Origin: Octopus vulgaris
Taxonomy: Eukaryota
DNA: 64,000 nt
Direction of reading: 5' to 3'
Assembly: GCA_951406725.2 (NCBI GenBank)
Contig: OX597815.1
Coordinates: 67,084,001-67,148,000, forward strand
Made by a program: the position numbers and the translations under genes. The notes under the pieces were generated by a model. It was not told the DNA's origin. It ran no database searches and worked only from the letters and a program-made list of their open reading frames with translations. Shown in pieces: positions 6,464 through 52,049 of this stretch. Position 1 is the stretch's first letter. Each line of letters opens with the position of its first letter.

Positions 6464-7685
6464 CACACACACACGCACGCATCCCCCCAACACACATTGC
6501 GTTTTTTTTTCAATATTTATTTTTGTTTGCAATAGCCGGTTCTTTAGGTCAAACTATTGTATCTCCAGCTGCTTCAGATGCCAAGATATCAAAAATTGTC
6601 AAAGTGTAGTACAACAGTTTTGCTATGGAATGGGAAAACTATTATTTCGGTTTCTGACAACTAGCAGTTGTCTAGTTGTCTAGAACTGCTGACATCCCTG
6701 TCAGCAGCACTGTATCCTGCCATGACCATTGTTGACACCCCCCTCTCTCTATCAACTGGTTACAGACGAACACACAGACACAGTCTTTTCTGTTGCTTGA
6801 CCATTAATACCAGCTATATCTCTCTCCCTTGCTGCCTTCTAAACACACTGCCACACATACATAGACGCACACACACATACATGAAAGCAATTTCTCACAC
6901 TCAAACACTCTAGCACTCATTCTTAAAACAATTCAAATATTAACACCAGTCATACAGAATACATTCACACTCTTTGATTTTCCTGTACTCCCCTTCTGTT
7001 AACCGGATTTTGACCTTGAATTATCTCAACGGACTTTCTCGTCGGCTTTCACCCAGCCTGACGTCAACGCATATTGATAGACAGTTTGTGCCATTTATTC
7101 CATGGGCTCCTCGTGAGCGTTTGTCGAAAAGCTTGCTGTGCATTTTGTTTGAGAATTAAGTTCCTGGATTTTCCTGAAGAGAAGGCTGCAAAATGGGCTC
7201 CTTATTCAATCCGAATTAGGGACTTTGCAGCCTTTGAAACATATATAGAAAATAATAAAAAGAAATTTTGTTAAATCTTCGTTCAGCTCCATTTCTTCCT
7301 ACACTAAATATATATATATATATATATATATATATATATATATATATATATATATATATATATATATATATATATATATATATATATATACCTCTCTCTC
7401 TCTTTATATATATATATATATATATATATATATATATATACAAGATAAGAAAATGGAGAAATACATCTAAATCAAATATCAATTACCAGATAATACTCAA
7501 TTACATACTTTATTAAACCACCACATAAGAGACTGTAGGGTTAAATATAAAAAGCAAAACAAATCAGTGTACATAAAGGAGTGTACATAAAAAAGTGTAC
7601 ATAAAAGAGTAATGTTATATAATAATTAGAATATATATAAAAAAGAATATAAATACAAGTAAATATAAATATATGTATAAATTAG

Positions 7686-7812
7686 ATCTTACAGCTGTTT
7701 CGGCCATGTCGATAATTATGTCTCATTTTACCAATATTAGCCCTTTATGGTTGGTCAATATATAGATATAAATGAGACATTAACAAAAATATCACAAGGC
7801 CTCTTCGGAGAT
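7686..7812 (-). ncRNA. Type I hammerhead ribozyme motif (C4 core variant, long stem II)
   Basis: Inverted copy of 8350-8476. Confidence 0.7.
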
Positions 7813-8349
7813 TATGTAATATAACACAGTCTACACATATACCCACATGGGTGTGGGTGCGTACCCACAATACAACATATATATATACATATGAGTGCAT
7901 ATACTCACACTCCTATACATATAAAAAATATACATTTACATAATGATATAAATAAATAATATAAATTAGTAAACATATATATGTGTTCCACACCCAATGT
8001 CTCAGTTTTTCGACTTAATATTGTGATAATAAACATACACAAATTAATACCTAGATGTAAATATACATAGTCAATAGTACATTATATTATATCATAATAG
8101 TTTCCAAAGTGTCATTAAAGTTAGTATCATTATCGTTGTCAATACAATTAATGTTATCATTGTTATCATTCATAATATTATTAATAACTCTAATTTATAT
8201 TATTTATTTATATCATTATGTAAATGTATATTTTTTTATATGTATAGGAGTGTGAGTATATGCACTCATATGTATATATATATATGTTGTATTGTGGGTA
8301 CGCACCCACATCCATGTGGGTATATGTGTAGACTGTGTTATATTACATA

Positions 8350-8476
8350 ATCTCCGAAGAGGCCTTGTGATATTTTTGTTAATGTCTCATTTATATCTAC
8401 ATATTGACCAACTATAAAGGGCTAATATTGGTAAAATGAGACATAATTATCGACATGGCCGAAACAGCTGTAAGAT
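8350..8476 (+). ncRNA. Type I hammerhead ribozyme motif (C4 core variant, long stem II)
   Basis: ATCT-CCGAAGA-GGCC...GGCC-GAAA-C-AGCT-G-TA^AGAT. Stem I ATCT/AGAT; stem III is the palindrome ACAGCTGT; stem II is extended by ATGTCTCATTT/AAATGAGACAT. Confidence 0.72.
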
Positions 8477-8966
8477 CTAATTTATACATATATTTATATT
8501 TACTTGTATTTATATTCTTTTTTATATATATTCTAATTATTATATAACATTACTCTTTTATGTACACTTTTTTATGTACACTCCTTTATGTACACTGATT
8601 TGTTTTGCTTTTTATATTTAACCCTACAGTCTCTTATGTGGTGGTTTAATAAAGTATGTGATTGAGTATTATCTGGTAATTGATATTTGATTTAGATGTA
8701 TTTCTCCATTTTCTTATCTTGTATTAGTAATTTGTGGTAAATCATTTTACCTTTGCCCAAATAATACAGTAAATGAATTGATTGCATCGCAATCATTAAC
8801 ATTTATGTATTAACTTTGTTGGGTACCTCACTAGCAGTATATTGGATATACGTTATCCCATAGAGGGTTGCATTTACAACCCCTATCTCAATTTGTAACT
8901 ATATATATATATATATATATATATATATATATATATATATATATATATATATATATATATTTATGG

Positions 8967-9083
8967 AAAAATGAATAGAAATGACTTTTCTGATAAATTT
9001 TCCACTTTAATAATTAGATATTTACAAAACATCTAATTATCAAAGTGGAAAATGATCAGAAAAGCCATTTCTATTCATTTTTT
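8967..9083. repeat. ~55-bp-arm hairpin between (TA)n tracts
   Basis: aaaaatgaatagaaatgacttttctgat...aattagat pairs with atctaatt...atcagaaaagccatttctattcattttt. Confidence 0.8.
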
Positions 9084-50600: not shown

Positions 50601-51107
50601 CTCAATGCAACATGTCAGCTACTGGGAAAGACTTAAACAATTAAAACTCTTCTCCTTGGAATGAAGGCAGGAGAGATATGCAGTGATATACATCTGGAAA
50701 ATTATAGAAGGCCTTGTACCAAACTTTGGCATTGAAAGTTATTCAAACTGCAGAACGGGGCGCCACTACATAGTGCCAAAGATCCCAGCATCGCCATCAA
50801 AATACAGGACCAGATGCTGCAACAGCTTGGGCTTCTAAAGGCCCACAGCTCTTTAATATCCTTCCAAAATGCCTGAGAGACCTGCATGGTGTGGATGTAA
50901 GTCTCTTTAAAACAAAACTGGATCGCTTCCTGTTACGGGTTCCAGACGAGCCTACCTCATGGTAGGAAACATAGATGAGGGCAGCAGCATCAAACACCCT
51001 CATTGACCAAATGCCACATATTAGAGGAGGTAGCAAATAATGGTGTAGCTCAGTCAATGGTGATGCTCCAACATGACCGCAGCTTTGCAGCTGAGACATT
51101 AAAAAAA
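47610..51107 (+). mobile_element. Near full-length CR1/L2-group LINE, decayed
   Basis: APE domain (LNV.GL, ETHL, NNILDLCF), RT (YRLISLT, QHEFRPGRSC, LDFAKAF, SGVPQ, YADDTK), 3' A-run at ~51100; many stops. Confidence 0.92.
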
Positions 51108-51439
51108 ACACACACATATATATATACATAATGCGCATACACTAACATTCATATAGATAAAGTGTTGCGAACTCGGTATCATAAAGATATCGCTTTGTAC
51201 ACTGATATTGGGTTTTGTATATGGTAGTAAGTTAGAGCATGTATGCATACATGCAGATATATATGCGTAATATTACAATATATGTATGTAATGATACATA
51301 CACACACATATTATATATATATATATATATATATATATATATATATATATATATATATATATATATATATATATATATATACATATATATAAATATATGA
51401 AAGAATGGAGTTGAACGACGAATTAACAAAATTCCTTTA

Positions 51440-51522
51440 TTTTCGACATATGTTTCGAAGGCTGCATATTCCTAATTGCGAAGGAATAAGGAGTATATTA
51501 TGCCGCTTTCTCATCAGGAAAA
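51440..51522 (-). ncRNA. Type I hammerhead ribozyme (canonical core)
   Basis: Inverted copy of 51664-51746. Confidence 0.82.
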
Positions 51523-51663
51523 GCAAGGAACTTATGTCAACATCAAGATGCACAAAAAACTTTTAGATGACTGGTCACAGGGAGCCCATTTTCACTATGG
51601 GCTCTGTGTGAGTAGTCATCTAAAAGTTTTTTGTGTATCTTGATGTTGACATAAGTTCCTTGC

Positions 51664-51746
51664 TTTTCCTGATGAGAAAGCAGCATAATATACTCCTTAT
51701 TCCTTCGCAATTAGGAATATGCAGCCTTCGAAACATATGTCGAAAA
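51664..51746 (+). ncRNA. Type I hammerhead ribozyme (canonical core)
   Basis: TTTTC-CTGATGA-GAAAGCAGCATA...TATGCAGCCTTC-GAAA-C-ATAT-G-TC^GAAAA; predicted cleavage after 51741; palindromic stem III ACATATGT. Confidence 0.85.
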
Positions 51747-52049
51747 TAAAGGAATTTTGTTAATTCGTCGTTCAACTCCATTCTTTCATATATTTATATT
51801 TAAAAAAAAACATACAAATTTCCACACGAAAGCACGTAACTTCAAACGTGTCTTCTCTGATGTGAATTTGCTACCCAGGTATCGGTTAACCGAATTATCC
51901 ATAACAAGATAATTCATTCAACTACTCAAATATTCATATATATATATATATATATGTATGTATATATAAATATATATAATATATATATATATATATATAT
52001 ATATATATATATATATATACACACACACAAACACATGCACACACAATAG

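Follow-up and report, generated by a model that had tools for sequence, protein, structure and literature searches.

Fold-back insertions with hammerhead motifs in TA microsatellites of Octopus vulgaris resemble the inverted ends of Penelope-like elements

Introduction

Insertions of Penelope-like elements (PLEs) have been described as an inverted, 5′-truncated copy lying beside a direct copy, with a tail on only one of the two (PMC8557442; PMC3846280), and a curation guide lists inverted pseudo-long terminal repeats (pseudo-LTRs) and 3′ extensions of these elements (PMC8969392). A known target of Hydra, Naiad and Neptune PLEs is (TA)n. The Hydra clade, whose members insert there, includes the Octopus bimaculoides family Hydra-1_Obim (PMC8557442), and the supplement of that paper lists Penelope-13_HM, a TA-targeting element to which an inverted copy is attached and whose two strands both carry hammerheads. 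Dual minimal hammerheads on opposite strands, 100-700 bp apart, have been read as truncated PLEs in a study that also reports high hammerhead variability within a genome and U3-A8 covariation (PMC4209133). Here, we describe three fold-back elements with hammerhead motifs (E1, E2 and E3) inside TA repeats of Octopus vulgaris and compare them with these systems. They lie in a window of 64,000 nucleotides (GenBank assembly GCA_951406725.2, contig OX597815.1, positions 67,084,001 to 67,148,000); coordinates below count from the first letter of this window, with + and - for its strands.

The protein of a lizard PLE, studied in vitro, cleaves both strands of the target and extends both, inserts without needing the hammerhead, and begins reverse transcription at two internal positions with the tail between them (PMC11167929). 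Self-priming at palindromes has been proposed for inverted PLE junctions (PMC3846280). Non-LTR retrozymes are same-strand tandem repeats whose hammerheads release circular RNA (Cervera and de la Pena 2020, PMC7229834; bioRxiv 2026.07.22.740005), and a 2026 preprint derives retrozymes from PLE termini (Li et al., bioRxiv 2026.07.22.740005). Among hammerhead core variants, U4C is known from a viroid and U3-A8 occurs naturally (PMC3088659), and C3G/G8C has been engineered as a partial-rescue mutant (PMC11167929).

Results

Three unrelated fold-backs in TA repeats

Our evidence comes from the 64-kb window, which is AT-rich (34.7% GC) and microsatellite-dense, from public contigs mapped to E1, from protein searches and from published papers. 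Local alignment confirmed the architecture put forward in the original prediction, an earlier reading of the window: E1, E2 and E3 are head-to-head inverted pairs inside TA repeats, each made of an inverted tail-less copy and a sense copy with a tail, which stands on the right arm only. The E1 arms (7438-7969 and 8190-8724) show 7 differences in 535 columns, with 220 nt between them; the E2 arms (41953-42071 and 42093-42211) show 4 in 119, with 21 nt between them and a tail of about 65 nt; and the E3 arms (51384-51589 and 51597-51802) show 7 in 206, with 7 nt between them and a tail of about 133 nt. Of the short spacers predicted for all three, that of E1 consists of 220 nt belonging to the element. 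The three elements are unrelated to one another, as predicted, their longest common match being 16 nt and AT-rich. Their longest ATG open reading frames (ORFs) measure 51, 31 and 53 aa in E1, E2 and E3, respectively, in line with the claimed lack of an ORF, a feature that retrozymes share.

In every arm the 3′ end faces the TA target, and the truncated 5′ end lies in the middle of the pair. Self-comparison and alignment found inverted pairs at all three loci and a same-strand tandem unit at none. Each of the 13 element ends considered has a TA run of 8 nt or longer no more than 3 nt away, against a background of 5.3% of the window inside or within 6 nt of such a run, a count that is partly circular because the ends were picked partly by their TA borders. 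Independent support for TA contact comes from loose ends in E1 contigs, and for E1 only. A complete type I hammerhead is predicted in five of the six arms. The predicted cut sites (after 8472, 7690, 51741, 51445 and 42038) are all internal to the arms, and the ribozyme therefore sets no insert borders.

Hammerhead motifs and their cores

Hammerheads were predicted from sequence and folding. A first descriptor was set to type I motifs with a palindromic stem III, leaving open which Watson-Crick pair stands at 3-8 and whether an extra base is present. It yielded 7 motifs in the window versus 0-2 in each of 30 local dinucleotide shuffles, and 4 versus 0 in 30 of 30 at its strict setting. A second, looser scan gave 8 motifs versus 1-5 in 20 shuffles, and 5 versus 0 in 20 of 20 when strict. 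The hammerhead count is far above chance. No hammerhead was found among the best 150 of 197 Rfam matches, whose top scores belonged to microsatellite-driven microRNA models below their gathering scores.

The cores differ between the elements. In E1, the inverted arm carries a putative type I hammerhead with a U4C core, a 100-nt stem II and a palindromic stem III (7690-7808, -, from the descriptor scan), and the sense arm one with the same core and stem II length (8354-8472, +, predicted cut after 8472, z -2.4). E3 combines a canonical core with a 54-nt stem II in its inverted (51445-51517, -) and sense (51669-51741, +) copies. The complete hammerhead of the inverted E2 copy (42038-42074, -) has a swapped G3-C8 pair and an extra base before stem II, and its stems I and II form in the minimum-energy fold; the sense E2 copy is truncated inside the hammerhead core, the 5′ core being missing. 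The back-to-back hammerheads of the original prediction are therefore complete in both arms of E1 and E3 and in the inverted arm of E2, whose sense arm is 5′-truncated as claimed.

E1 in public contigs

E1 consists of an inverted tail-less copy (7438-8189, -), of which we read the 220-nt spacer as the upstream part, a 5′-truncated sense arm delimited by local alignment (8190-8724, +) and a tail of about 173 nt (8725-8897, +) that is bounded, in contigs, by two recurring 3′ ends. In public data, E1 was listed for 20 sources from 9 studies among 24 rows, none of them marked as RNA (X13 is possibly an RNA run), and contigs from 4 of the 24 listed runs (X1, X2, X4 and X13) were mapped against 7970-8899. 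The family is very abundant, with 2292-3417 contigs in each of three DNA runs. In these runs the 3′ bins had a median summed depth 9.0, 14.0 and 14.8 times higher than the spacer, where depth is summed, flat per contig, and gives no copy number. Sixteen contigs of X2 and two of X13 pass directly from 8724 into TA, and sixteen of X1 and fourteen of X2 do so from 8897; both 3′ ends recur across family copies.

An opposite-strand joint, 7970/8190, was found in three of the four runs, with matching loose ends in the remaining one. Its reading as a fixed fold-back junction was rejected, as the contigs show the parent's own continuous sequence in inverted orientation. Contigs over 8067/8070-8191 continue into other sequence in X2, X4 and X13, and those departing from the reference at 8188-8191 have a depth of 1334 (X2) and 244 (X4). 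The simplest reading assigns the spacer to the upstream portion of the inverted copy and takes the parent element to be longer. E1 looks like a 5′-truncated copy and not a fixed cassette, because of the 3′ depth excess, the two recurring (TA)n ends and a parent that continues upstream of the spacer; the depth gradient and this continuation may reflect variable 5′ truncation across copies. Among the best 32 of about 9400 contig pieces, on which our conclusions on spanning rest, none spans 8189/8190, the junction private to this locus.

Arm variants fill 21 of the rows listed, from a table with 20 further rows, and in 17 of the 21 the majority base is unlike that of the window in all three DNA runs. 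Fourteen of these 17 departures are common to both arms; the remaining three are confined to the sense arm, the inverted arm having the majority base. This pattern fits a derivation of both arms from one source template followed by independent decay, and assembly duplication would not yield such diverged arms of one source. Gene conversion between the arms is an alternative. No variant falls in the hammerhead core among the rows listed; of seven stem II variants, two break predicted pairs and five are unpaired, and covariation is not shown by them.

Two further features of the family were observed. One subfamily omits 68 nt (8281-8350) upstream of the hammerhead, at a depth of about 2750 in two runs. 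Some contigs match only the last 100 nt of the tail, with loose ends before 8796 in all four runs.

E2, E3 and their relatives in the window

E2 comprises an inverted tail-less copy (41953-42092, -) and a sense copy with its tail (42093-42277, +). A second locus of this family (38517-38712, -) is 91% identical and holds a single copy with tail and TA on both sides; its hammerhead (38666-38701) has the G3-C8 swap plus an extra G5A.

E3 comprises an inverted tail-less copy (51384-51589, -) and a sense copy (51597-51935, +) with its tail at 51803-51935. Its centre (51573-51613) is an imperfect palindrome, which we read as a native hairpin where the arms were joined. Four of the seven arm differences lie within 17 nt of the loop (Fisher p = 0.001, with a test window picked post hoc), a clustering expected for a native imperfect hairpin at the joint. 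An older, tail-less copy of this family, overlooked in the original prediction, lies at 7091-7306 (+); it is 75% identical, ends in TA and has a hammerhead motif at 7174-7247. Its outer stem II keeps 12 of 12 pairs with one compensatory change, versus 10 of 12 in E3, and it retains a short hairpin at the position of the E3 joint.

Also missed by the prediction was a fourth, older fold-back with a tail (8950-9130, +) between TA runs, whose 74-column arms have 10 differences and in which the window scans found no hammerhead. Between 7091 and 9130, the E3-family copy, E1 and this fold-back follow in a row with only TA runs between them, an arrangement suggesting that one microsatellite was targeted repeatedly. 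A further two inverted repeats, both decayed (28295-28491 and 62438-62680; 71% and 67%), have neither TA flanks nor hammerheads and are possibly old DNA-transposon relics.

Solo hammerheads had been predicted at 15.8, 19.9, 38.3 and 38.7 kb. The 38.7-kb motif is the E2-family hammerhead with G5A described above, and that at 19.9 kb is a canonical minimal hammerhead (19949-19975) in a solo PLE-type terminus that ends in TA (19855-20070, +, 5′ border approximate). The other two are degenerate and were missed by both scans: a hammerhead-like motif with a U4C core, a long stem II and broken stems I and III (38251-38330, +, z -2.6) and a minimal one with an altered core, a recognisable stem II and a weak stem I (15795-15830, -, z +0.2).

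Coding relics of PLEs

A broken, 5′-truncated Hydra-clade PLE lies between TA runs at 17908-19588 (-), with the C-terminal part of the reverse transcriptase (RT), a linker, a GIY-YIG endonuclease and a 3′ untranslated region (UTR). A Penelope RT/GIY-YIG relic had been predicted at 18.3-19.6 kb; the relic is real, and of its protein only these three parts remain, with no catalytic DD seen at 18.3-19.6 kb and the RT core absent. Its 83-aa frame at 18.3-18.56 kb (-) matches 154 proteins at E up to 0.001, and in one homologue RT core, linker and endonuclease are colinear with the relic, from 19401 to 18321. A profile built from 148 of the 150 listed matches of this frame, two repetitive ones being excluded, revealed a second broken Hydra-type endonuclease, absent from the original prediction, at 36185-36550 (+; E 2e-6 and 2e-5 in two frames). 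Compared by eye to Hydra-1_Obim rows, the relic endonucleases are C-terminal GIY-YIG domains with CxxC and CxH around conserved E and N. With two Hydra-clade relics in the window, TA-targeting PLEs were therefore present. Near 17.96-18.0 kb, only a 5′ half-core and a hairpin are visible, which both hammerhead scans missed.

A word-based protein search gave no match for the relic endonuclease, and Pfam recognised neither the relic nor its RT-bearing homologue, so Pfam blanks weigh little here. Pattern scans aimed at host contigs gave one chance match in metagenomes, in an apparent bacterial gene, and none in viral contigs; in prokaryote genomes a 17-nt pattern had at least 120 chance matches, none extending past 20 nt, and three longer patterns had none.

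Further stretches recall PLE sequence by eye. Non-repetitive, cysteine- and histidine-rich stretches at 6500-7090 might belong to a decayed PLE endonuclease, an unconfirmed hint. Upstream of the 15.8-kb motif, a 106-aa open frame (16000-16400, -) looks like a decayed GIY-YIG domain; it had no match in the word search and no named lead in the protein atlas. At 36100-38455 (+), about 1.7 kb of AT-rich sequence poor in microsatellites separates the second endonuclease relic from the U4C long-stem motif of 38.25 kb, and a TACA/TA run marks the end. The whole may represent a single element whose 3′ UTR is long; if so, U4C long-stem hammerheads would be linked with the Hydra clade. A stretch of the E1 tail that we take to be Naiad-like, and one of the E3 tail that we take to be N-terminal-like, were picked by eye, are not confirmed and are not counted as evidence.

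Other repeats

Judged by eye, broken frames at 29215-30621, 47953-50424 and 56702-58676 look like reverse transcriptases and endonucleases of long interspersed elements, and fragments at 24192-24500 (+) and 5600-6300 (-) look like mariner-type transposases. A 243-aa open frame at 45173-45904 (+) resembles a transposon-derived protein. A dispersed repeat of about 200 nt, probably a short interspersed element, has at least 10 copies of 70-85% identity (2406-2918, 11.1-11.4, 34.4-34.6, 35.8-36.0, 43.9-44.4, 55.7-55.9 and 59.4-60.2 kb). A 267-nt direct repeat of 98.5% identity (38800-39066 and 40929-41195), whose first copy directly follows a TA run, appears to be a young element.

Discussion

Judged by its layout, the recurrent cassette is the already published form of PLE insertion. 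As in inverted pseudo-LTR insertions (Arkhipova et al. 2013, PMC3846280; Craig et al. 2021, PMC8557442), we observe a truncated copy placed head to head, a one-sided tail, junction palindromes, a microsatellite target and a terminal hammerhead; an N-rich stretch next to the inverted copy has been described as well. The hammerheads share with minimal metazoan PLE hammerheads (Cervera and de la Pena 2014, PMC4209133) a palindromic stem III, an additional base between positions 9 and 10.1, numerous variants within a genome, opposite-strand pairs and covariation at 3-8. They differ from those described there in having G3-C8 instead of U3-A8, U4C, and stem II regions of 54 and 100 nt where the described motifs have a 7-8 bp helix closed by a short loop. 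Both coding relics share the endonuclease pattern and TA targets of the Hydra clade, in which Penelope-13_HM has an inverted copy; the Hydra hammerheads listed in the published material have a short stem II and canonical cores, and by eye none matches E1-E3. Published 3′ ends of Octopus Naiad consensuses likewise showed no match to E1-E3 by eye, and motif look-ups in the PMC8557442 supplement returned none, in a text whose line breaks can hide matches.

We consider it probable that E1, E2 and E3 are single PLE insertion events, each of a different family, consisting of the 3′ (pseudo-LTR) ends of longer elements. The PLE connection, the TA targeting and the diversity of hammerhead cores in the original prediction are supported. 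In such an event, a GIY-YIG endonuclease would cut the TA microsatellite, by analogy with Hydra, Naiad and Neptune PLEs. Reverse transcription would then start from one of two family-specific sites and yield copies with or without the tail; two ends are seen for E1, and their role as start sites is suggested by the lizard PLE, whose dual-start model the two recurring E1 ends fit. Each side of the cut would gain a copy with its 3′ end toward the target, giving a head-to-head pair, either because both target strands prime or because one complementary DNA folds back at a native hairpin, routes between which the data do not choose. Both copies would end early and their 5′ ends would be joined, in E2 and E3 at short palindromes that are seen at the junctions. 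The hammerhead would be a passenger within the terminus.

Several observations weigh against this reading. The families of the fold-backs were tied to no ORF by profile, protein and Pfam searches of the window, leaving room for short non-autonomous families. An open frame in the E1 spacer had no protein relative in the word-based search, the E1-E3 tails had no convincing Pfam match, and the region upstream of the 7.1-kb copy (6500-7090, +) reached a non-significant E of about 0.5 with the Hydra-type profile. Unlike published PLE insertions, the copies are too short for identified coding sequence, and their tails measure 65-173 nt versus 30-40 bp. Between the 3′ end of the Hydra relic and E2 or E3, matches do not exceed 30 nt, and E1 has none; neither coding relic has a terminus in common with E1-E3. 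The read data cover E1 alone of the three fold-backs and come from coded organisms, possibly of other species than that of the window, and 3′ subfamilies could raise 3′ depth without truncation. Finally, the starts of the E2-family copies at 38.7 and 42.08 kb both fall at hammerhead stem I and differ by no more than about 6 nt, an agreement not expected from random truncation.

This last observation fits a short fixed element, and brings us to the alternative that at least one family, most likely E2, derives from PLEs as a short non-autonomous unit, made of 200-750 nt of pseudo-LTR alone with a fixed 5′ end, which PLE proteins move in trans, the inversion being an ordinary PLE product. Such derivatives have been published (PMC8557442; bioRxiv 2026.07.22.740005). 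E3 and its 7.1-kb relative also lose similarity at the same hairpin, and the lack of an ORF link agrees with a unit of this kind. The E1 parent, however, extends upstream and shows a 3′ depth bias, and the 7.1-kb copy runs on upstream in non-TA sequence; moreover, two loci per family are insufficient to establish a fixed 5′ end, given that hairpins or structured RNA can create truncation hot spots. We regard this alternative as rather unlikely, though a serious contender. The term non-autonomous in the original prediction would suit the near-common start of E2; the E1 read data point to a truncated longer parent.

The original prediction had also called the elements retrozyme-like. Non-LTR retrozymes, made as hammerhead-processed monomers, circularised and copied from circular RNA, share with E1-E3 the type I hammerhead, the lack of an ORF, the size range and a proposed PLE origin through the published link with pseudo-LTRs. 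They are nevertheless same-strand tandems, which are absent from all three loci; here the ribozymes lie in inverted pairs on opposite strands, and on this the retrozyme reading fails. The copy ends do not fall at the predicted cut sites, and the hammerheads belong to the minimal or palindromic type of PLEs. A cassette transcript would hold one sense hammerhead and a long hairpin, and these copies could therefore not release circular RNA as retrozymes do. We consider the retrozyme route very improbable. We give equally little credence to assembly artefacts, or to DNA transposons (miniature inverted-repeat or foldback elements) that bear hammerhead-like motifs by chance. Assemblers are known to have difficulty with inverted PLE structures (PMC8557442), and the E1 junction at 8189/8190 lacks a spanning piece among those compared; the arms, on the other hand, differ by 1.3-3.4%, with three E1 differences private to the sense arm. 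Chance motifs are opposed by the excess over the shuffle background and by the compensatory change in stem II, and the asymmetric tail is unlike a terminal-inverted-repeat layout.

If E1-E3 are PLE insertions of this kind, only some unusual ribozyme variants may be undescribed: the G3-C8 core and the stems II of 54-100 nt, one of them with U4C. The literature that we searched, judged mostly from listings and with one key paper outside that search, held no natural G3-C8 family, no U4C in PLEs, no long stem II and no octopus hammerhead. Lunse and colleagues reportedly described about 150,000 PLE-associated hammerhead variants in 2017 (RNA Biol), which may already cover them. We therefore advance only tentatively, as a possibility well below even, that natural hammerheads are being missed by standard descriptors: in E2, a G3-C8 form in a non-autonomous element of about 195 nt that starts at the ribozyme's first helix, and elsewhere forms with a stem II of 54-100 nt, one with a U4C core and apparently conserved in the very abundant E1 family.

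On its most likely reading, the window shows an insertion pattern already described, locally dense and in a TA-repeat-rich animal genome, and as such matters little. If these hammerheads cleave, PLE hammerheads would be undercounted, and Naiads, reported without canonical hammerheads, may have stretched forms; a G3-C8 hammerhead occurring in nature would be the counterpart of the engineered rescue mutant, and long stem-II hammerheads would broaden search descriptors. How PLE inverted repeats form, which PMC8557442 names as an open task, could be tested on thousands of inverted insertions that have two fixed 3′ ends; the recurring ends, together with native junction hairpins, would offer a large natural data set for weighing two-strand priming against fold-back synthesis.

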